In this document: positions 4,179-53,240 of the stretch, piece after piece
Numbering within the stretch: position 1 is the first letter of the stretch
Layout: every line of letters starts with the position of its first letter
DNA from: a virus
DNA length: 55,055 bases
Strand: one strand, 5' to 3'
UHGV virus genome: UHGV-0209657
Made by a program: the position numbers and the translations under genes
The notes under the pieces: generated by a model
What the model saw: only the letters and a program-made list of their open reading frames with translations
Told to the model about the DNA's origin: nothing
Databases searched by the model: none

Positions 4179-4469
4179 TTAATGGTAGCGGACTTTATCC
4201 AGGGGTTTTTCCCCTAAATGGCGTGGTTGCGTTGCGTGGTAGTAGCTGCCGCTTTCATTTTCCGTATACCATTTTACTGATCCTTTGCGACGTTCTTTAA
4301 TGCTATTTGGTTTGCATCTTTCCTCGTTTGCAAATCGAATAGCTTTATCCACATTGTCTGTTTTATTGATTGCAGGTGATGATTTTCTTTCGTTTTCTCT
4401 TTTTATTTTTCTGCGTTCCCTGGCATTCAGTTTACTGTCACATTTGCCATACATGATTGTAACGCTCAT
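4179..4469 (-). CDS. basic protein with N-terminal arginine-rich motif, possible N-like antiterminator
   Basis: First gene after candidate leftward promoter; NARERRKIKRENERK resembles an ARM; GGAG RBS before ATG. Confidence 0.3.
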   Translation of the reverse strand: MSVTIMYGKCDSKLNARERRKIKRENERKSSPAINKTDNVDKAIRFANEERCKPNSIKERRKGSVKWYTENESGSYYHATQPRHLGEKPLDKVRYH

Positions 4470-4807
4470 AATCTGATCTCCGTATATCCTTGATGATACT
4501 TAATAAAAAATCATCTTCGTTAATTGCCGCACTTCCAGCGGCTGACCAGATTGTTAATGAGCGGCTTAACATCTTTCAACTAATCCCGCAATCATCGCCG
4601 TTCCCGGCGTGACCTTGCTCACTCCAAGCAAGCTGACTCGTCGCCTTGCGTGCGGTTTCGTGGGGGATGTAACGCTTTAAACACCCCATGCGCCTTGTTA
4701 TCAGTGCCGCTTTCGGTCCCCCATCGGGGAGTTACTCCACGGTTGACAAGGTGTTAAGCCTGATTTTTAAAGTGCCAGGAAGTTGCTTTTGTTACCTGCG
4801 ACCTTCC

Positions 4808-4836
4808 TTTGACTCGCAATATACGCCCCGTAAAAC
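4808..4836 (-). promoter_or_regulatory. candidate leftward early promoter (TTGACT - 17 nt - TATATT)
   Basis: Read on minus strand: -35 at 4831-4836, -10 at 4808-4813, between cI and the leftward operon. Confidence 0.4.
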
Positions 4837-4935
4837 ATCGAGTCAATCCATTTTGTATACTTTTTTAAAATATTTTATATGCTATTGATATTTAAACAAT
4901 AAATAACGTTTTCTGTTTACGTTTTGGCGTTTTCC

Positions 4936-4965
4936 AGGCAAAGAAAAGCCGCCATCCGGCGGCTA
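4936..4965 (-). terminator. rho-independent terminator after cI
   Basis: Hairpin AGCCGCC-atcc-GGCGGCT followed on minus strand by TTTTCTTTG. Confidence 0.5.
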
Positions 4966-4969
4966 ATGT

Positions 4970-5617
4970 TTATGGCAGGTTTACGATCTTCGCATCAACC
5001 ACCACGCCTATAATTTTTGATTCTGGATTCATAGGGATTGGCGGATACAGCGGATTGAGCGAACGTAAAAGCCTTTGACCTCCATCAATAATCAACTGTT
5101 TAAACGTCGGTATCTGCCCTTCCTCAAGCTGGGCTATAACCAGTTTGCCGTCAATAGCTGGCGCGTGCGGGTCAACAAGTATCATCGTCCCCGCCGGGAT
5201 GCTCAACCCCTGCGGCGCGTTCATTGATTCACCTTTGGCAACCAGCCAGTAACTATCATCTGAACAAATAACGCTAGTCGTAACGTGTGGTAATGCTGAT
5301 CGCCTTGTGTCATCCATATTGTTTACTGTGTCCTTCCAGTCAATAACCGGGTAACTACCTAAATCACGCGGCGGTGCGGCCTGAAGTGTATTAGAAACAG
5401 AATCATCAATGACCATACCATCATGTGTAACAGTGAACTGCCGACGACCAAGCGCCCGCATAATCCGCGCAATATCTTCAAGATTTGGCTCGCGGCGACC
5501 GTTCAGCCAGTGTGACAGGCCGCCTTTAGTTATCCCCATGAGATCTGCGAGTGAATCCTGACTCATGCCCTGCGCCCGCATGAGCTGCTTTGCTAAGTCA
5601 TACCATTTTGTTTTCAT
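4970..5617 (-). CDS. cI: CI-like repressor (HTH plus S24 LexA-type autopeptidase domain)
   Basis: N-terminal HTH, C-terminal GESM Ser motif and downstream Lys; divergent from rightward operon. Confidence 0.85.
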   Translation of the reverse strand: MKTKWYDLAKQLMRAQGMSQDSLADLMGITKGGLSHWLNGRREPNLEDIARIMRALGRRQFTVTHDGMVIDDSVSNTLQAAPPRDLGSYPVIDWKDTVNNMDDTRRSALPHVTTSVICSDDSYWLVAKGESMNAPQGLSIPAGTMILVDPHAPAIDGKLVIAQLEEGQIPTFKQLIIDGGQRLLRSLNPLYPPIPMNPESKIIGVVVDAKIVNLP

Positions 5618-5676
5618 GTCGCTACCCTATAACCTCAAAAAGTTTGATGCAAGTCACAAAACGTGTATTTTAAGCC

Positions 5677-5704
5677 TTGATCTTAAAATTCCATTTTGTA
5701 AACT
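5677..5704 (+). promoter_or_regulatory. candidate rightward early promoter (TTGATC - 16 nt - TAAACT)
   Basis: Sigma70-like hexamers in cI-cro intergenic region; spacer ends with CCATTTTG. Confidence 0.4.
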
Positions 5705-5741
5705 TGCAGACAAGGTAAGGCCATACTTGCAAAGACGCAAG
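5703..5741. promoter_or_regulatory. candidate repressor operators
   Basis: Inverted repeats CTTG-N4-CAAG (5703-5714) and CTTGC-N6-GCAAG (5726-5741) overlapping the promoter -10/+1. Confidence 0.35.
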
Positions 5742-5922
5742 GAAAAAGATAACTGAAGGCACAAAAAGGCACTTACCTTATGCTCTTTAAAAATCCGGTG
5801 TCGCTGCGAAGCGAAAAACAAATATCACGCAACGGCGGGATCTGTTGAGCGGTCAGTCACTGCTATCTAATGCTAATGGGATGCCCGCCCGCGCGTTCAC
5901 TCTAACCATAGGAGAAAATGCG

Positions 5923-6180
5923 ATGAGTATGAACATGATTAGTAAAGCATGGAACGTAAAACTTAATAGCCCGATTCAAAAACTTGTCTTAATGGCTCTG
6001 GCTGAAAAGGCAGATAACAAAGGACGGGTACATGATGCATCACGCAAAGAAGTAGCCGCAATGTGTGAACTTCCTGTTCATACGGTACATGATGCCTTCG
6101 CCGCGTTAATGGATAAAGGATTTGTTTGTCGTCTTGATGCATTCAGTGATGTCTATGTAGTGATGTTGCCGGAGGGATGA
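5923..6180 (+). CDS. small HTH DNA-binding protein (Cro/CII position)
   Basis: ATG at 5923 with GGAG RBS (listed start 5845 is non-ATG); helix-turn-helix-like segment; first gene of rightward operon. Confidence 0.5.
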   Translation: MSMNMISKAWNVKLNSPIQKLVLMALAEKADNKGRVHDASRKEVAAMCELPVHTVHDAFAALMDKGFVCRLDAFSDVYVVMLPEG

Positions 6181-6183
6181 TCT

Positions 6184-7230
6184 ATGAAGTGGTTTAAGCA
6201 TGACAGCGATGCGAACCGCGATGAAAAACTTCAAAACGTTTTGTTAGATTATGGCCTGGAAGGGTACGGGCTTTATTGGTATTGCCTCGAACTAATAACT
6301 TATGACGTAGATCAGCACAATCTGAATTTTGACCTACGACATGACGCGAGAATCATTGCGCGAAACGTCGGATCTACTGAAAAACGTATAGAAGAAATGA
6401 TGAAATACTTCATCGAAATTGGTTTGTTCGAATGTTCTCAAGGCCACATAACTTGCCTAAAGTTATTAAAAAGGCTGGACCAATCAATGACTTCTAAGAG
6501 CGCTTATAGGGCTGCTATAAACACAGCGAAGGAGCAATTAAAATTAGAGAAGTTAATCAATCCAACACCAAAAGGTCATGATAGGGTCATGACCGGGTCA
6601 GGAAAGGGTCATGAATTAGAAGTAGAAGAAGAAAGAGAAAAAGATATATACACTTCGTGTATTAGCGAAAATGGACAAAAAACGGTCAATCAGGATGGCG
6701 TAAACGAAGCGGCATTGCGTTGCTTGGCCTTCTACAACGACAAAGCTGGATGCAAGTGTCGTGATGCTAAGCCATTTATCGAACTACTGACAGAAACAAA
6801 AACACGTAAGGCATACACGGAGGATGAGATCACATTAGTAATCGAATGGGCTTTGACGCAATGGCGCAGCCGTGGTGGAACACCTAAGCCTATCAACATT
6901 TGCCGGGTAACTAAATTCGATGGGTATCTGGCTGACGCTGAGCAATGGCGCAAGCTATCAGCTACTGTAAACGCTGCCGACGTGGTGGAAGCATTTAACA
7001 GCACGTTTGACGGCCTGTTACCACCTGCCGAACTGGATCGGGATCTTGAACGCAAGATCTATGCGTTCACTGACTACCTGAAAGACAAAAGCATTAACGG
7101 CTTTGTCGCCTACTTCGAAACGTTCAAAAACACGGCTTCAGATTTTTACTTCGGCAATGGCTTCACTGCGACACTTGATTTCCTGCTTAAACCAAAAACG
7201 CTACGTGATACGCGCGCTGGCGCTCTTTGA
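6184..7230 (+). CDS. replication initiation / replisome organiser protein
   Basis: N-terminus MKWFKHDSDANRDEKL...GLEGYGLYWYCLE matches recalled DUF4373 replication N-domain; GGAGGG RBS; upstream of helicase. Confidence 0.7.
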   Translation: MKWFKHDSDANRDEKLQNVLLDYGLEGYGLYWYCLELITYDVDQHNLNFDLRHDARIIARNVGSTEKRIEEMMKYFIEIGLFECSQGHITCLKLLKRLDQSMTSKSAYRAAINTAKEQLKLEKLINPTPKGHDRVMTGSGKGHELEVEEEREKDIYTSCISENGQKTVNQDGVNEAALRCLAFYNDKAGCKCRDAKPFIELLTETKTRKAYTEDEITLVIEWALTQWRSRGGTPKPINICRVTKFDGYLADAEQWRKLSATVNAADVVEAFNSTFDGLLPPAELDRDLERKIYAFTDYLKDKSINGFVAYFETFKNTASDFYFGNGFTATLDFLLKPKTLRDTRAGAL

Positions 7231-7363
7231 CCAACCACGATCCGCAAAAATCCAAAATTACCCACAAAACAACCTCACCAGCGAGCTAAATCGCATGTGG
7301 TGCTACACTTGCTTACCTTTTTGCGATTAGCTCGTTAGAGAGCGTTACAGAGAGGATTTTAAA

Positions 7364-7465
7364 ATGGATAGTAAACACGTTTTCGCCCTGGCTTTCGCCA
7401 TAGCTGCGGCAATAGATGTTAACGTCGTTTTGTTCGGCGGTTTGTACCTTCTCGTTAATCCATAA
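7364..7465 (+). CDS. small hydrophobic peptide (33 aa, MDSKHVFALAFAIAAAIDVNVVLFGGLYLLVNP)
   Basis: ATG micro-ORF with GAGAGGA RBS; below ORF-track cutoff. Confidence 0.25.
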   Translation: MDSKHVFALAFAIAAAIDVNVVLFGGLYLLVNP

Positions 7466-7618
7466 CCTACCTACCAGTCTGTAAACCGAAAATTAGCCAC
7501 CTGATAGCGTCTCTGGCGCAATAAGACACTGCAACCTGTGCAAACGGGTTACGCGGTGGGATTTTTGCGTTGTAGCGCGTCTGAGGCGTTATATAGAAAA
7601 TTAATAAAGGAGGTATAT

Positions 7619-8674
7619 GTGATTGCTACTTATCATATGAAACTCAATTGTAAGGACACGCAATTACTGTCTGTTAATAATCTGGTTTCTGAACTTGAAA
7701 TTGATAGACTTAAATCATTTGTTAAATACTCTGATCTTTACGGATTTGAGGAATACAAGGATTTTATTGTTGATGGTGATGATGTGTATATCACACCCAT
7801 AACGTTTATTAGATTCGTTACACCTGGTAAATATAGACATTATGAATATAATGAAAAATGGGTTAAGCCAGTTATTGAATCTTGTGGATTAGTTGACTTG
7901 CAAGATATCTTTAATAAATATTCAAATAACACCAAAAAAGATAGTCCTTATGCTTATAATTATATTTTATGGTGTAACAATTATGTTGAAACGAGTGATA
8001 CTCCTGGGCGATGTTCTGTGTATGTGTCAAAAGAAGATGCTGAAAAGTACAAAAAATGGTTGTTCGTCACTCGCGGAGTATCAATAGAAAAGCTATGGGT
8101 AAGGTTGTTCCATTCAAGCGATATTGCAGATCCAGATGCGTTTTTAACTGAACACCTCAATAATGATGAGTTTACCATTGATTTAAATATTGAATATTTT
8201 ATAGTTAAAACAAATTATGGGTATGAAAGATATATTAGCGATAAGATAGCAGAAAAGTATCATGCATGGGGTGAAAATAAAGGTCTTAATAATAATTTTG
8301 AATGCGGGAATTATAACGACATAGAAAACTTTATTGAATTAAAAAGCGATAAAAATGTAATTGAAGAAATAAAAAAGGAGTACGACTCGAAATTATCAGA
8401 AATGAGAGATAATTGTAAAAATATGATTAGGAAGCGTTATGAACATGCTGGCTTAACTATGTATGAAAAACTAAAAGGAGTTAAATTAATAAGGCAATAT
8501 CCTGTTGATGTTGCTGGCAATAAGTATTTTATTGATGGCTACGATCCTGTGAATAACGTTGCTGTAGAAATTGATGAGTCACATCACAAACGGCAAGTAA
8601 AAAGCGATGCGATAAGACAAAAACGCATTGAAGATTATTTGGGGTGCAAGTTTTTCCGTTGTGCTATATCCTAA
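7619..8674 (+). CDS. AT-rich hypothetical protein with C-terminal DUF559/Vsr-like endonuclease-fold domain
   Basis: GTG start 5 nt after AAGGAGG; markedly lower GC than flanks; C-terminus YFIDGYD..VAVEIDESHH..D..R..LGCKFFR matches recalled DUF559 pattern. Confidence 0.5.
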   Translation: MIATYHMKLNCKDTQLLSVNNLVSELEIDRLKSFVKYSDLYGFEEYKDFIVDGDDVYITPITFIRFVTPGKYRHYEYNEKWVKPVIESCGLVDLQDIFNKYSNNTKKDSPYAYNYILWCNNYVETSDTPGRCSVYVSKEDAEKYKKWLFVTRGVSIEKLWVRLFHSSDIADPDAFLTEHLNNDEFTIDLNIEYFIVKTNYGYERYISDKIAEKYHAWGENKGLNNNFECGNYNDIENFIELKSDKNVIEEIKKEYDSKLSEMRDNCKNMIRKRYEHAGLTMYEKLKGVKLIRQYPVDVAGNKYFIDGYDPVNNVAVEIDESHHKRQVKSDAIRQKRIEDYLGCKFFRCAIS

Positions 8675-8710
8675 TGTATACAAATTGTAAACCGCAATGT
8701 ATACGATTAG
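8671..8710. repeat. palindromic element at 3' end of AT-rich gene
   Basis: CTAATGTATAC (8671-8681) and inverted GTATACGATTAG (8699-8710); AATGTATAC direct repeat. Confidence 0.4.
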
Positions 8711-8851
8711 TTATTCATTAAGTGGTTATTTCAATTTGCATAAGTTGTTGATTAACCCTACTGGCATTTTTTGACACCGTGAAATCCATGTTAATAAAAA
8801 TTAGTTATTTATGAATAAATACTCATTCCGCGAACCGGAGGTAATAACGTT

Positions 8852-9970
8852 ATGTCACAAAGAAAGATCAGCGATGAGGAACTGATCGCCGAGTACAACA
8901 AGGGGAAAACTTACAAGCAAATAGCAGAAGAATATGGAATGGCAAAACGCAACGTCGAACGCCTGGGCGCACGGTTGGCGAAACGCGGTTTAATATCCAC
9001 GCGTCGCGCGCCGGGCTTTGGCGTCAATGGTGAGTCATTGCTCGTCGATAAGGATGGCAATGTGATTATGCGCTGGATTAAAACAGCCCGTGATCGCGAT
9101 GAAATGGAAAGGCTAATGCAAGCGGCTTGCGATGCTTTCACGGAAGACATGCCACGCGCGGAGGCCGTGCCAGTGCCGGAAATTGATTTCCAAAAAAGCC
9201 TGGCCCTTTATCCGGTATTCGATCTGCATATCGGGGCGCTTGCTCATAAAGCTGAATGCGGTGAGAGCTACGACACCGGGATCGCTGAACGCGTGCTAAA
9301 TGATTTCTTTGACTACGCGGTAGGCGCAGCGCCGATGTCTGAAAAAGCTGTATTGCTTCTCGGTGGGGATGTTCTTCACACTGATGGGCTGTTGCCAGTG
9401 ACGCCATCAAGCAATCACGTACTTGATTGCGATTCACGCTACGCAAAACTTGTTTATGTGGCGATCCGGTCAGTCCGCCGTGCTGTAGGAAAGATGTTGT
9501 TAAACCACAAAGAAATCGAAATCCAGGTATTATCAGGTAATCACGATCAGTCGGGGATGATTTGGCTACGTGCTGCGCTGGCGGCTTTTTACGAAGATGA
9601 ACCGCGCGTAACGGTTGACGTGTCACCTGCTATCGTACACCACACACAGTACGGCAAAACATTCCTTGCTTACCACCACGGACACACCATCAAAAAACCA
9701 GAAAATTTGTTGTCTGCCTGCGTCTCTGACTGGCGGGAAGATTTCGGTAAGTCTGCGGCGGTTTATGCTCATTGCGGGCACTGGCACCACCAACGGTTGA
9801 TTGAATCATCGTTAGGCGTTGTTGAGTATCACGGCACGTTAGCGGGCAAAGACGCTTATTCAACGAATGGCGGCTGGCGGTCGCGGCGTCTGGCGGCGGT
9901 AATAATTTACAGTCCTGATCACGGGGAAATCGGGCGCTTTGTTTATTACCCTGAATATTCCATTTTGTAA
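8852..9970 (+). CDS. HTH-domain protein fused to calcineurin-like metallophosphoesterase (GNHD type)
   Basis: N-terminal HTH; motifs DLHIG, GGDVLHTD, GNHD, GHWHH in canonical order; ATG at 8852 with GGAGG RBS. Confidence 0.55.
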   Translation: MSQRKISDEELIAEYNKGKTYKQIAEEYGMAKRNVERLGARLAKRGLISTRRAPGFGVNGESLLVDKDGNVIMRWIKTARDRDEMERLMQAACDAFTEDMPRAEAVPVPEIDFQKSLALYPVFDLHIGALAHKAECGESYDTGIAERVLNDFFDYAVGAAPMSEKAVLLLGGDVLHTDGLLPVTPSSNHVLDCDSRYAKLVYVAIRSVRRAVGKMLLNHKEIEIQVLSGNHDQSGMIWLRAALAAFYEDEPRVTVDVSPAIVHHTQYGKTFLAYHHGHTIKKPENLLSACVSDWREDFGKSAAVYAHCGHWHHQRLIESSLGVVEYHGTLAGKDAYSTNGGWRSRRLAAVIIYSPDHGEIGRFVYYPEYSIL

Positions 9971-9988
9971 ACCGGAGGTAATGCCATA

Positions 9989-11404
9989 ATGGATTCTGTT
10001 AACTCACTGCGACAAGAACGAGAGTCTGCTGTGATAGGCGGACTCCTGTTAGGCGGGCTTACACCTAACGCGCAAGACGTTCTTGCTACGCTCGATCCTG
10101 AAGTATTCACTATTCCGCTATATAAGCGGGCTTTTGAAATTATCCGGGCGCAAGCCAGAAACAGAAATCTTATCGACGCGTTACTGGTTGGTGATGAGAT
10201 TGGTAATGAAAACTTTGTACCGCTAATGCAAACGGCGCGATCGTGCCCTTCTGCTGCCAACCTGAAGGGATATGCACAGCTACTACGTGAAGAGCACCAG
10301 CGGCGGCAGATGTTGGAACTCATCGACGATATGCGCTACAAACTGGAAACTGGGACACTTGAGGTCGTCAAAGAGACGATGAAAGATTTTGATTCCCGGT
10401 ATTCAAAATTAAAGGTAACAAAAGATCAAATTATCCCGGTGCTGTTGCGCGATGCGGTCCAGGAATACACGGAAGTGCTAAGTAAACGCATGGAGTGTGG
10501 CGTGAACTCTGACAACATCAAAACAGGTATTGACCCACTCGACGAAATGTTAGGCGGCATTAATGCTACTGATCTGGTGCTTATCGCCGGACGCCCAGGG
10601 TCTGGTAAATCGGCGTTGGCGTTGGCAATTGCCCGCGCGGCGGCTGAACGTCCATACCCTGGCGGCGAAGGTCAGCGGGTCGGCGTTTTGCTGTTCACGC
10701 TTGAAATGTCGCTCGATCAGATGACTGAACGTGCTATCGCTGGCGCTGGGAACTTATCAACGGATTGCCTACGTAATCCGGTAAAACTGGATGACGAAGG
10801 TTGGGCGCACGTCACCCAGGGAATGAGTGCCCTTGCCGATCTCGATGTGTGGATTGTTGACGCATCGCAGTTAACGGTCGAGGAAATACGCGCCACCGTC
10901 GAACGGATGAAACAGGACCATCCTAACCTGGGGATGGTAATGATTGACTACATCGGGTTAATGAAGCTGGCTAAGGCCGAACGTCATGATCTCGCCGTAG
11001 GGCAATTGTCGTGGTCATTGAAAATGATGGCGAAAGAGTTGCGCGTGCCAGTGGCGGCGCTGGCGCAATTATCCCGCCGCGTTGAGGAACGACCGAACAA
11101 GCGCCCGAACAATTCTGATCTGCGTGATTCCGGTAATCTTGAGCAGGACGCAGACCGGATCATCATGGTCTACCGCGACGGCTACTACAACGAACAATCG
11201 GTTGCCCGCGAATATATGGAGATCATCGTTTCAAAAAACCGTCACGGGAAAACGGGGACTGTTTACCAGCGGTTTGACGATAACGGCAACATCATCCCAT
11301 GCGACCAGGCCCGCGCGGCGTCCGCTTGCATTCAGTCAATGCAACAACGTCCGGCGGCAAGTAGATTCTCCCCACGAAACAGCCAGAACAACGCATCTTT
11401 TTAA
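9989..11404 (+). CDS. dnaB: DnaB-family replicative DNA helicase
   Basis: Walker A GRPGSGKS and DnaB C-terminal domain layout; 471 aa. Confidence 0.9.
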   Translation: MDSVNSLRQERESAVIGGLLLGGLTPNAQDVLATLDPEVFTIPLYKRAFEIIRAQARNRNLIDALLVGDEIGNENFVPLMQTARSCPSAANLKGYAQLLREEHQRRQMLELIDDMRYKLETGTLEVVKETMKDFDSRYSKLKVTKDQIIPVLLRDAVQEYTEVLSKRMECGVNSDNIKTGIDPLDEMLGGINATDLVLIAGRPGSGKSALALAIARAAAERPYPGGEGQRVGVLLFTLEMSLDQMTERAIAGAGNLSTDCLRNPVKLDDEGWAHVTQGMSALADLDVWIVDASQLTVEEIRATVERMKQDHPNLGMVMIDYIGLMKLAKAERHDLAVGQLSWSLKMMAKELRVPVAALAQLSRRVEERPNKRPNNSDLRDSGNLEQDADRIIMVYRDGYYNEQSVAREYMEIIVSKNRHGKTGTVYQRFDDNGNIIPCDQARAASACIQSMQQRPAASRFSPRNSQNNASF

Positions 11405-11483
11405 TTAACTTGAGCAAACGGCTTACCGGAAAGTTGACCGCTTTCTGGTGGCTGTTTTCGCGCTTAAAACGAGGCGAAAAACA

Positions 11484-12041
11484 ATGAGCATTGAACTTGA
11501 AGCAAAAATTATCAATATCCTTGAACTTGATGGCATCGCAACAATGCACCAGCTACGCCAGAAAACCGGATTATCAGCGGAATACGACGAAGCCGGATGC
11601 TTGCCGGAAACAGTTAAACACCTGATCGACACTAATCTGGTTGAGCGGGTGTATACATATTTTGGCCCGCGCCGCCGCTTGCTGGGCTATCGAATTAAAT
11701 ATTTATACGAACAACGACGCGAGCGTGTAGCCGCGTTATTTACTGACTACAACGTTAGAAAGCGAATGAGAGATATTAGCGCGGAAACTGGTATTCCGTG
11801 GAATTACCTTTCGCGCACGCTGCGTTTAATGGTGCTGGATGAAACGCTTTGCATAGATACCAATAAACACGGCCTTAATTTTTACTCACTGTTTAAACCT
11901 GGTCGCTTTGGTCACGCTAATGATCTCGCGTTTGATTTTGACAGCCGCCTGAATGAATACCGGAAAAATAACGGACTGTTACCGGATAAACCAGTATTTG
12001 AGATCGAAAAACTTAACGGTGAAACGGGGTTAGAATTATGA
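11484..12041 (+). CDS. hypothetical protein with N-terminal winged-helix-like segment
   Basis: ATG at 11484 (listed 11448 is GTG); function unknown. Confidence 0.35.
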   Translation: MSIELEAKIINILELDGIATMHQLRQKTGLSAEYDEAGCLPETVKHLIDTNLVERVYTYFGPRRRLLGYRIKYLYEQRRERVAALFTDYNVRKRMRDISAETGIPWNYLSRTLRLMVLDETLCIDTNKHGLNFYSLFKPGRFGHANDLAFDFDSRLNEYRKNNGLLPDKPVFEIEKLNGETGLEL

Positions 12042-12244
12042 GACGGGTAATCTTTTATTCAGTTGAAACGTTTGTCGACGATACGCGTGTTTATTATCCG
12101 TGGGAAGTATACGACGCAAAGGTGTATACACCGCCACTGATGCGGAAATATAAACACGTAAAATTTAACCGGTTTTTTGTACCAATGCGTGATGCACTGC
12201 GGGTGCTGCGCGGTGAATTACGAAACACAATGCGTATTGTGTGA
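12038..12244 (+). CDS. hypothetical protein (68 aa)
   Basis: ORF overlapping upstream stop. Confidence 0.3.
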   Translation: MRRVIFYSVETFVDDTRVYYPWEVYDAKVYTPPLMRKYKHVKFNRFFVPMRDALRVLRGELRNTMRIV

Positions 12245-26524: not shown

Positions 26525-26622
26525 AAAACCCCCACAAGTTACATTTTGTATATATCTTTACGCGCTTCTACGCGAAAAATAAGATCATTGTCACAATGAT
26601 TATAGCTAGTTTACAAAATGGA

Positions 26623-45960: not shown

Positions 45961-46022
45961 TATATAACAAAATGGCACTACCGAAACAATGCCATTTCGT
46001 AAACATTGTGATACAGATCACA
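45961..46022 (-). promoter_or_regulatory. candidate CRP-dependent class I promoter inside island
   Basis: Perfect TGTGA-N6-TCACA at 46007-46022; -35 TTGTTT (45984-45989) and -10 TATATA (45961-45966) on minus strand; CRP centre about 61 nt from inferred start. Confidence 0.35.
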
Positions 46023-46023
46023 T

Positions 46024-46248
46024 TTACGTTTCTTCAGTAAAAGTAACCTTCATCGCCCCATCCGAACTACGGACAACATAGCGACCAGCTCCCCGGCGCG
46101 GCTCTGCATACCATAAGTGACCGTAAGTGTCAGTAACGACGATAAACGGCAATTTAGGAGACAATCCCATCGGTTTTTCAGCCGTATACTGTGCGCCTTC
46201 TTCAAAACAGCCTAATTTCGATTCGTTACACGTTAAAATCATTTTCAT
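46024..46248 (-). CDS. island ORF (74 aa)
   Basis: Shares F..G..Y...D..W pattern with neighbours. Confidence 0.3.
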   Translation of the reverse strand: MKMILTCNESKLGCFEEGAQYTAEKPMGLSPKLPFIVVTDTYGHLWYAEPRRGAGRYVVRSSDGAMKVTFTEET

Positions 46249-52292: not shown

Positions 52293-52368
52293 AATGCTCT
52301 CTCCTTTTCAGGTGATTTCTACGCATTTCAGCGCTGCCGGATTTTTAAAGAGCATTTCGTTTGCTTGA

Positions 52369-52429
52369 AGTATACAAAATGGATACACCAGAACAAGGTG
52401 AATAGCGCCATTATGTGATCCACATCACG
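52369..52429 (-). promoter_or_regulatory. candidate promoter with CRP-like site upstream of nin genes
   Basis: -10 TATACT (52369-52374), -35 TTGTTC (52391-52396), TGTGA-N6-TCACg at 52414-52429, within nested inverted repeats. Confidence 0.35.
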
Positions 52430-52451
52430 CAATGGCGCCATTTTGTAAATT

Positions 52452-53240
52452 TCAGTCCGGTAAAACGCGGTTAAGCGTAGTGCGATTGATGGCCCGGTCG
52501 TTAGCCAGGAATACAGCACGGGCAAAGCCGCGCGGCGTTAGTGAGCGGATCATCTTAGTGCGTTTCGACTTTCCTCCTAACTTAGCGTGCTGCTTACTGT
52601 CTTCCCATTCATCAGGCATTGGCACAGGCCGGAATAGCGGCTGCTTAAATCCATTCCCGCACCAGATACAAGTTTTCTTCGTGTATGCGTCGCGGGCCGC
52701 TATGTATTCAGGGAAAGCAGGGTGTTTATCGTCTTCCGGCAGGTAGCCACCGTAAGCGCACGGGTTGAAGATAAAATCAGGTTTGCGCCATAACGTTGAC
52801 AGTGCGCCCACCGGATTTTCCACCATCCACGGCACGTTATACATATTCGCCAGTTTTTCTACCAGTTTTGCGTTATACGCCGCCTTTACCTGGAAGGCAG
52901 GATCTTTTTCCCGTTTACCAGCGAACCAGCGAGCGCCTGAAACGGCGAGATCGTCGCACGGCGGAAAGCCCAATATAATGTCAGGTGCTGGATAAGAAGA
53001 CAATTCAGGCGAGAACATTACCAGGAAATGGCTGTCAATCCACACGTTAACGTATTCAATATTAGGATGAATGATTTTAACGCCTTCATAATCGCCGTGA
53101 TTTGCACCGTCATAATTGAAGCAATAGCACTTATATCCCGCTTCCGCCCAATCTTTAACGGCGTACCCGCTGCCGTCGTACAGCGACCACACCACCCAAC
53201 TTCTAAGCCAATTATTTAACCAATGTTTGCCCTTGCTCAT
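52452..53240 (-). CDS. C5-cytosine DNA methyltransferase-like protein (compact)
   Basis: Motif I-like LYDGSG, motif IV-like GFPPC, motif VI-like ENPVG in canonical order; 262 aa. Confidence 0.5.
   Translation of the reverse strand: MSKGKHWLNNWLRSWVVWSLYDGSGYAVKDWAEAGYKCYCFNYDGANHGDYEGVKIIHPNIEYVNVWIDSHFLVMFSPELSSYPAPDIILGFPPCDDLAVSGARWFAGKREKDPAFQVKAAYNAKLVEKLANMYNVPWMVENPVGALSTLWRKPDFIFNPCAYGGYLPEDDKHPAFPEYIAARDAYTKKTCIWCGNGFKQPLFRPVPMPDEWEDSKQHAKLGGKSKRTKMIRSLTPRGFARAVFLANDRAINRTTLNRVLPD

Follow-up and report, generated by a model that had tools for sequence, protein, structure and literature searches.

The gene at 8852-9970 on the plus strand of the viral genome UHGV-0209657 (55,055 nucleotides, the whole of which is called the window here) encodes an N-terminal HTH joined to a metallophosphoesterase (MPE) domain, and it stands directly ahead of a gene for a DnaB-type replicative helicase. 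Does its product serve the neighbouring helicase, or does it act as an enzyme on its own account? An earlier note on the locus had left both answers open, as an unusual helicase loader or an inserted nuclease or phosphoesterase. By DNA comparison, the window is an mEp021-like (mEpimmI) temperate coliphage, and the region is 85-93% identical to the mEp021 group (mEpimmI) and to Escherichia phage MagusPhagus. The mEpimmI phages were described as Nus-dependent 'non-lambdoid' phages, in a paper that discusses neither the HTH-MPE gene nor the 13-mer presented below (PMC11893012). From the left, the genes encode a repressor (minus strand), a small HTH protein, the Rep initiator at 6184-7230, the AT-rich insert at 7538-8674 and the HTH-MPE protein, followed by DnaB, a winged-HTH protein, NinB and then an integrase on the opposite strand. 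The features around the gene are as follows.

6184-7230 (+): replication initiator Rep, Lin1244_N with an O-like C-terminus (Lin1244_N, E 5e-11; PHROGs 428 and 345, 'replication initiation', E about 1e-20)
7538-8674 (+): AT-rich inserted gene, 378 aa, with a C-terminal DUF559/Vsr-like endonuclease fold, in a variable slot upstream of the MPE gene
8837-8841 (+): ribosome-binding site GGAGG of the HTH-MPE gene, read from the sequence; the same CCGGAGGTAAT block also precedes dnaB
8852-9970 (+): HTH-MPE gene, 372 aa, homologue of mEp021 gp11 and member of PHROG 704 (ORF list, PHROG match)
9989-11404 (+): DnaB-type replicative helicase (DnaB_C, E 8.6e-76; DnaB N-terminal domain, E 6.3e-12)

The reading frame is real, with an ATG start and 372 codons confirmed both in the ORF list and by direct reading of the letters. 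It ends 18 nt before the start of the helicase gene, whose DnaB_C match bore out the earlier statement that a DnaB helicase follows directly. The origin-binding role in this module is held by Rep. Several side observations were made on the flanks. The GC content of 7538-8674 is about 0.32, compared with about 0.50 in its neighbours, and PADLOC likens the C-terminus of its product to a methyl-directed type II restriction enzyme (mREase_II, E 1.5e-8); in relatives the same slot holds a zinc-ribbon protein (mEp021), small ORFs (MagusPhagus) or Rha-like genes (prophages). Candidate identities for this gene are a homing endonuclease and a moron for exclusion or defence. Just past dnaB, a terminator-like hairpin with a 12-bp stem (11423-11451, plus strand) overlaps the start of the ORF at 11448-12041, which encodes the MarR/Ren-like winged-HTH protein.

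An AlphaFold2 model of the HTH-MPE protein, built from 18 homologues (pLDDT 74.8), showed three parts, namely an N-terminal bundle of three helices (residues 8-44), a linker of hairpin and helix modelled with low confidence, and an MPE core that runs to the C-terminus. The parts map to the gene as listed below.

8867-8989 (+): N-terminal HTH of the sigma-70 region 4 / LuxR-GerE type, residues 6-46 (family-level HTH matches and model helices)
9017-9181 (+): linker module, residues about 56-110, beta-hairpin and long helix (AlphaFold2 secondary structure, low pLDDT)
9191-9955 (+): binuclear MPE domain, residues about 114-368, without an Mre11-type capping domain

In the window's sequence alone the HTH is weak (Pfam, E about 0.02; the NCBIfam HTH match is also marginal), and it is evident at the level of the family. 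Of 40 diverse PHROG 704 members, 9 matched Sigma70_r4_2 (best E 1.5e-9); the best GerE match had E 2.4e-8, and HTH_8 and HTH_28 were among the other matches of these 40. The family profile searched against PDB sequences gave a GerE match as well. The model places helices at 8-16, 21-28 and 32-44. Segment 1-55 is basic (pI about 10), while the linker is acidic (pI 4.5) and carries a tryptophan, W75, that is almost invariant in the family.

The MPE domain holds the whole motif set of the superfamily. Conservation was counted in 148 representatives of at least 300 aa and in a set of 40 diverse members.

9221-9235 (+): MPE motif I, DLHIG, residues 124-128 (D124, H126), invariant in 40/40 and 147/148 members
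9362-9385 (+): MPE motif II, GGDVLHTD, residues 171-178 (D173, metal ligand, 148/148; H176, at D+3, 143/148)
9398-9439 (+): family-specific loop VTPSSNHVLDCDSR (T184 in 147, D192 in 143, D194 in 139 and R196 in 143, each of 148)
9536-9547 (+): MPE motif III, GNHD, residues 229-232 (N230, ligand, and H231, candidate general acid, each 147/148)
9674-9688 (+): MPE motif IV, HHGHT, residues 275-279 (H276, 147/148)
9776-9790 (+): MPE motif V, GHWHH, residues 309-313 (H310, 141/148; H312, 147/148)

All five elements of the superfamily set (DxH, GD, GNH[DE], H and GHxH) occur in order, including motif IV, which was absent from the earlier motif list. The seven predicted metal ligands (D124/H126, D173, N230, H276 and H310/H312) are kept in 141-148 of the 148 representatives, and 143 of them have an N-terminal extension of at least 90 aa ahead of motif I. 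Because both the ligands and the extension are conserved across this set, the fusion and the active site are ancestral and under selection. The retention of the ligands likewise indicates that the protein is predicted to be an active enzyme and not a degenerate, decayed scaffold. The family-specific loop was poorly modelled (pLDDT below 50 at residues 181-191 in the AlphaFold2 model), and we infer that it may bind substrate. Taken by its sequence, the gene is real and encodes an HTH domain fused to an intact, predicted two-metal phosphoesterase.

The protein belongs to a large and widely annotated phage family. Its residues 4-368, nearly the whole protein, aligned with positions 2-387 of the 390-position profile of PHROG 704 ('DNA repair exonuclease') at E 8.7e-137, and the N-terminal HTH and ordered motif series that the earlier note had read from the letters were recovered where it had placed them. 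The same note had allowed that the motifs might be fortuitous; the full-length PHROG 704 match, the invariant or near-invariant residues in the family and the predicted MPE fold, obtained by profile and structure searches, spoke against this. Homologues were found by tblastn in 2,045 of 50,697 phage records, with phages of Escherichia, Klebsiella, Salmonella, Vibrio, Campylobacter, Rhodobacter and Ruegeria among them, and an exhaustive phmmer search over 1.84 billion cluster representatives matched 4,303 of these 50%-identity clusters with E <= 1e-3, of which 922 passed E <= 1e-30. The product is 96% identical to MagusPhagus CDS0008, annotated 'DNA repair exonuclease', and its mEp021 homologue gp11 (mEp021_11) is annotated 'hypothetical'. 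Searches with the window protein gave no Pfam Metallophos match at E <= 0.1, and Pfam, NCBIfam and the single-sequence PDB search returned marginal HTH matches and no MPE match; among the 40 diverse members, 11 matched Pfam Metallophos and 11 matched Metallophos_2. The superfamily assignment thus rests on the motifs, the PHROGs, the matches of other family members and the predicted fold, and not on single-sequence Pfam.

PHROG 704 / VOG9929 ('DNA repair exonuclease' / 'putative phosphoesterase') has members in T1-like Drexlerviridae, Jersey-like phages, Dhillonvirus, Jedunavirus, Vibrio phages and roseophages, with the same order of HTH, linker and MPE domain and the same motifs, and the window protein is 56-66% identical to the Drexlerviridae members. 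What differs is position, since the gene lies between Rep and DnaB in the mEpimmI group and beside lysis, terminase or nin genes in the others. The protein is therefore a typical member of a known family, and its place in the replication module of the mEpimmI group is its sole unusual aspect. Existing annotations are similarity-based and contradictory ('DNA repair exonuclease', 'phosphoesterase', 'DNA polymerase II small subunit', 'Rrf2 regulator' and 'winged HTH protein'), our literature searches found no experimental functional study of the PHROG 704 / VOG9929 family, and the PHROG name itself is a prediction. A homologous 'phosphoesterase' of Drexlerviridae, gp38 of Pantoea phage AAS23, was identified by LC-MS/MS among the proteins of purified virions (PMC8004638), where it may be either a virion-associated protein or a contaminant. 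For mEp021, the out-of-place virion proteins named in the accessible part of its description are others and not the gp11 homologue (PMC11893012).

Within the superfamily, the predicted fold places the protein on the side of the phosphodiesterases and nucleases. The model has the beta-sandwich MPE fold and is nearest to MJ0936, Mre11, SbcD and PolD-DP1 and remote from protein phosphatases, with Rv0805 and GpdQ also among the matches; a fold search of BFVD returned uncharacterised phage relatives only. A PPP-type Ser/Thr phosphatase, such as lambda NinI, was considered and rejected, as the combination of GDxVDRG, GNHE and close fold likeness was not found. Mre11 carries GDLFH and GNHD at the positions of motifs II and III, and the earlier note had taken GNHD as the mark of an Mre11/SbcD-type enzyme. 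GNHD alone is not diagnostic, and the similarity in sequence was not significant. When the family profile was searched against PDB sequences, the only MPE chains listed were Mre11/SbcD (E 0.25-0.74) and the Pseudomonas putida 'Nuclease MPE' (E 1.6), none of them significant, and the best Mre11/SbcD match (E 0.25) spanned motifs I-II only. No SbcD or Mre11 model was among the NCBIfam families listed for the members. Mre11 and SbcD have a capping domain and a Rad50/SbcC partner, whereas the HTH-MPE protein has an HTH instead. Its MPE core ends at residue about 368 of 372 in the model with no Mre11-type cap, and Rad50/SbcC was not among the 25 most frequent PHROG families in same-strand genes up to three positions away at about 100 loci. 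Their size, and the tail fibre annotated beyond the integrase in relatives, lead us to regard the window's own long ORFs (598-1656 aa), which sit in the half with other large minus-strand ORFs, as tail or structural genes. The protein therefore stands on the phosphodiesterase/nuclease side of the superfamily, yet forms a family of its own. It also differs from the single-domain MJ0936 / YfcE / Vps29 proteins (Metallophos_2; about 165-185 aa), which have no known natural substrate and have neither the HTH nor the TPxSxHxLDxDxR loop that are both present here.

There is also a likeness to P. putida MPE / PdeM (TIGR04123), an Mn-dependent ssDNA endonuclease of an Lhr-ligase repair operon, which likewise is stand-alone and capless, has no SMC partner and carries both of the histidines considered here. 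Its metal ligands are D33, H35, D78, N112, H124, H146 and H158, and two further histidines, H81 (D78+3) and H113 (beside N112), are essential for ssDNA cleavage and not for bis-pNPP hydrolysis (PMC7826289). The HTH-MPE family has the matching layout in D173-x-x-H176 and N230-H231, an equivalence drawn from spacing and not from structural superposition. With H176 and H231 as the presumed counterparts of H81 and H113, the arrangement supports a nucleic acid as substrate, without proving it. Membership of the PdeM clade itself was tried and rejected: 12 of the 40 members matched PdeM weakly in NCBIfam, with scores of 13-18 bits where the curated cut-off is 150, and the aligned part was a stretch of about 30 residues at GNHD (profile positions 87-118 of 207). 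This is resemblance only, and the window protein gave no match to TIGR04123.

A precedent for an MPE in phage replication comes from the cluster A mycobacteriophages. A10ZJ24 gp48 is expressed early and needed for phage DNA replication in M. tuberculosis; it is a phosphodiesterase that breaks down DNA in vitro, whether linear, plasmid or genomic, and mutation of its motifs abolishes activity (PMC12287305). Bxb1 gp47 was reported, according to a paper citing the original, to be needed for DNA replication and excision (Savinov 2012), and its gene is located among polymerase, primase and DnaB-like genes. The cluster A proteins (Bxb1 gp47, L5 gp54 and A10ZJ24 gp48) likewise belong to an early replication module near a primase and a DnaB-like helicase. 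They are about 255 aa long, have no HTH and belong to another MPE subfamily, while the HTH-MPE protein has 372 aa with an HTH; moreover, Bxb1 gp47 is the recombination directionality factor for a serine integrase, whereas the window phage has a tyrosine integrase. As a close homologue Bxb1 gp47 was rejected (hhalign probability 3-10%) and kept as a functional precedent. The cluster A MPE is best read as an analogy, with no apparent homology beyond the superfamily level.

Across the family, no partner gene and no genomic position is conserved. In Drexlerviridae the gene lies ahead of a holin-endolysin-spanin cassette; in Webervirus the genes that come next are those of a HAD-type PNKP phosphatase and a product annotated dNMP kinase, and then those for lysis; in Dhillonvirus and Jedunavirus it stands immediately ahead of the terminase genes; in Jerseyvirus it belongs to an island that interrupts the tail genes, and a Rha/ANT gene lies two positions from it; and in a Vibrio phage and RcPescado it is found by the lysis genes. 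Salmonella phage ST44 has it two positions after a DUF3987 helicase. When the PNKP and kinase proteins of Webervirus and Jedunavirus were compared with neighbour genes from IMG/VR, there was one weak match only, so the kinase linkage is limited to certain lineages. We sampled neighbourhoods at 97 IMG/VR loci from three distant sub-lineages. The commonest same-strand upstream neighbours were NinG/Rap, NinB, RusA and nucleotide kinases, and those downstream were endolysins, Q-like antiterminators, HNH endonucleases and terminases; the position in these loci is that of a lambda nin-region gene. DnaB was present in 10 of the 97, always 4-12 genes upstream and never adjacent, with NinB between and Q after the MPE gene. 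Adjacency to DnaB was confined to the mEpimmI group, and elsewhere the two genes were 4-12 genes apart or DnaB was absent. In phage herni (Drexlerviridae), the two helicases tested were an SF2 helicase and a DUF3987 protein, not DnaB_C.

Within the mEpimmI group the order Rep-MPE-DnaB is constant, and in the window the MPE gene and dnaB have similar GC contents. The pair is nevertheless split in some relatives by an HNH endonuclease gene, at 5702-6205 in mEp021 (L109) and at about 6115-6645 in two prophages (L113 and L114). The block '...CCCTGAAT(A/T)TTCCATTTTGTAAACCGGAGGTAAT' that ends the MPE gene in the window sits after the HNH gene in these relatives, which suggests that the putative insertion occurred at the extreme 3' end of the MPE gene. 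Compared across the module 6184-11404 with four relatives (L001, L109, L110 and L113), DnaB was 88-97% identical, MPE 60-96% and Rep 28-97%. One prophage combines a DnaB 94.5% identical to the window's with an MPE of 60.1% and a Rep of 29.7%, so the helicase is not co-inherited with a given MPE allele. There are at least two MPE allele types in mEpimmI-like prophages, the second no nearer to any other homologue listed than to the window's. From these identities the replication module is strongly mosaic, and MPE alleles are swapped independently of the helicase.

The end of the gene also carries a short repeat that the earlier note had recognized from elsewhere in the genome.

9960-9972 (+): copy of the 13-mer CCATTTTGTAAAC, spanning the MPE stop codon and followed by the dnaB ribosome-binding site (CCGGAGGTAAT) (sequence search)

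The recurrence was confirmed, and its coordinates, given before as 9961-9973, were corrected to 9960-9972. Exact copies of CCATTTTGTAAAC also occur at 5691-5703 (+) and 26609-26621 (-), and sites with up to two mismatches number 17 genome-wide compared with 2.3 expected by chance. Copies of this asymmetric 13-mer lie at 742, 4848, 5691, 9960, 25016, 26609, 45992, 52370 and 52438. Because the copies other than that at 9960 are nearly all intergenic and oriented toward the next gene, CCATTTTGTAAAC may be a promoter-associated or regulator-binding element, as its placement suggests, and is a candidate operator. It is conserved directly ahead of dnaB in MagusPhagus and mEp021, in the latter after the inserted HNH gene; among the replication-region loci compared, copies at matching positions were found for 4848, 5691 and 9960 in mEp021 and for 5691 and 9960 in MagusPhagus. 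The copy at 5691 had been placed in 'the early promoter', and this was not supported, as a promoter/terminator scan of 4400-12100 was not above shuffled expectation and gave no sigma-70 promoter support at the CCATTTTGTAAAC copies in that range. As a separate observation, TGTGATC...GATCACA-type palindromes, which may be operators, lie beside several CCATTTTGTAAAC copies in divergent intergenic regions (about 715-770, 45990-46030 and 52330-52460).

Between the two answers that the earlier note had offered, the nuclease or phosphodiesterase was favoured by the intact motifs, the fold and the family, and the loader lost ground for want of a conserved linkage to a helicase. A loader or replisome organiser would bring the phage DnaB to the origin or load it there, its MPE fold serving as a scaffold like the B-subunits of archaeal and eukaryotic polymerases. 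The constant gene order in the mEpimmI group, the similar GC content of the MPE gene and dnaB, the nearby DUF3987 helicase gene of ST44 and, by analogy, the need for an MPE in mycobacteriophage DNA replication all speak for some link with replication. For loading as such, the 97 viral loci, with DnaB adjacent in none and 4-12 genes upstream in the ten that have it, argue otherwise, as do the gene's places next to lysis, terminase or tail genes in such groups as Drexlerviridae, Dhillonvirus, Jedunavirus and Jerseyvirus, the helicases of phage herni, the HNH gene that parts the pair and the coexistence of a nearly identical DnaB with divergent MPE and Rep alleles. The catalytic residues are all conserved, unlike those of scaffold-type MPEs, neither sequence nor fold similarity to known loaders (lambda P, DnaC/DnaI, SPP1 G39P and DciA) was found, and no conserved linkage of the gene to a helicase gene was seen. 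We consider a loader very improbable, and a DNA nuclease is likelier because the family usually sits nowhere near a helicase. Just as improbable, in our estimate, is a form of the idea restricted to the mEpimmI phages, where the protein would be an integral replication factor, either a DNA-tethered nuclease or a B-subunit-like adaptor working with Rep and DnaB at the origin. If true, a metallophosphoesterase fold would here underlie a new kind of protein for helicase loading or origin processing, and this would parallel the unexplained need for the Bxb1 gp47-type MPE in mycobacteriophage DNA replication.

Other functions were weighed on the same evidence. An end-healing or small-substrate phosphoesterase (a 2',3'-cyclic or 3'-phosphate esterase, or a nucleotide phosphodiesterase) would partner the polynucleotide kinase/phosphatase and the dNMP kinase in nucleotide salvage or in RNA or DNA end repair. 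We regard this as unlikely, since the kinases are adjacent in a minority of lineages and absent from the window, and it is difficult to see why a small-molecule enzyme should carry an HTH, fused in about 143 of 148 members; conservation also extends to the GDxxH and GNH histidines, which P. putida MPE does not need for small-diester hydrolysis (PMC7826289). An accessory, horizontally mobile gene in the variable early regions of many unrelated phages might instead encode a counter-defence enzyme that degrades nucleotide second messengers of host immunity (cyclic oligonucleotides or similar), and some MPEs are cyclic-nucleotide phosphodiesterases, with Rv0805 and GpdQ among the fold matches. However, the protein matches no PADLOC model, the HTH fusion is left unexplained, and conservation in whole virulent families such as Drexlerviridae looks more like housekeeping, which makes this reading quite improbable; we know of no anti-defence phosphodiesterase with HTH-MPE architecture. 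Scarcely probable at all is a role as transcription factor, in which the HTH would control late or lysis genes and the MPE domain would be a sensor or an accessory module. The sigma-r4/LuxR type of the HTH, the place just ahead of lysis or terminase operons in several lineages, which is lambda's Q position, and the 13-mer at the 3' end, shared with promoter-proximal intergenic regions, speak for this. Against it, a bona fide Q antiterminator directly follows the MPE gene in lambdoid-type loci, where the role of late regulator is thus taken, the strictly conserved catalytic centre suggests an enzymatic function, and the window gene sits in the middle of an early operon.

The reading that we prefer, and to which we give about an even chance, is that of an Mn-dependent DNA nuclease or phosphodiesterase, tethered by its HTH, that takes part in early phage DNA metabolism. 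The protein would be expressed from the early rightward operon, together with replication and recombination genes, and its N-terminal sigma-region-4/LuxR-type HTH would tether the MPE domain to DNA. That domain would be a catalytically active two-metal phosphodiesterase, probably with Mn2+, and its likeliest activity would be DNA cleavage independent of Rad50/SbcC, of the kind carried out by Mre11/SbcD or P. putida MPE. In early development its target might be phage replication or recombination intermediates, or the host chromosome. The gene would then be a self-contained, horizontally exchanged accessory unit, and its product no dedicated loader of the neighbouring DnaB.

These results suggested that the locus holds an ordinary member of its family and not a new type of helicase loader. 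Of the phage proteins that have no tested function, PHROG 704 is one of the more widespread, and whole virulent groups, such as the T1-like phages, seem to have kept it. The mEp021-type phages are genetically tractable phages of E. coli K-12 and offer a convenient system for the role of the enzyme, one in which to learn if an HTH-guided MPE nuclease that works without Rad50 contributes to phage replication, to recombination or to the takeover of the host.
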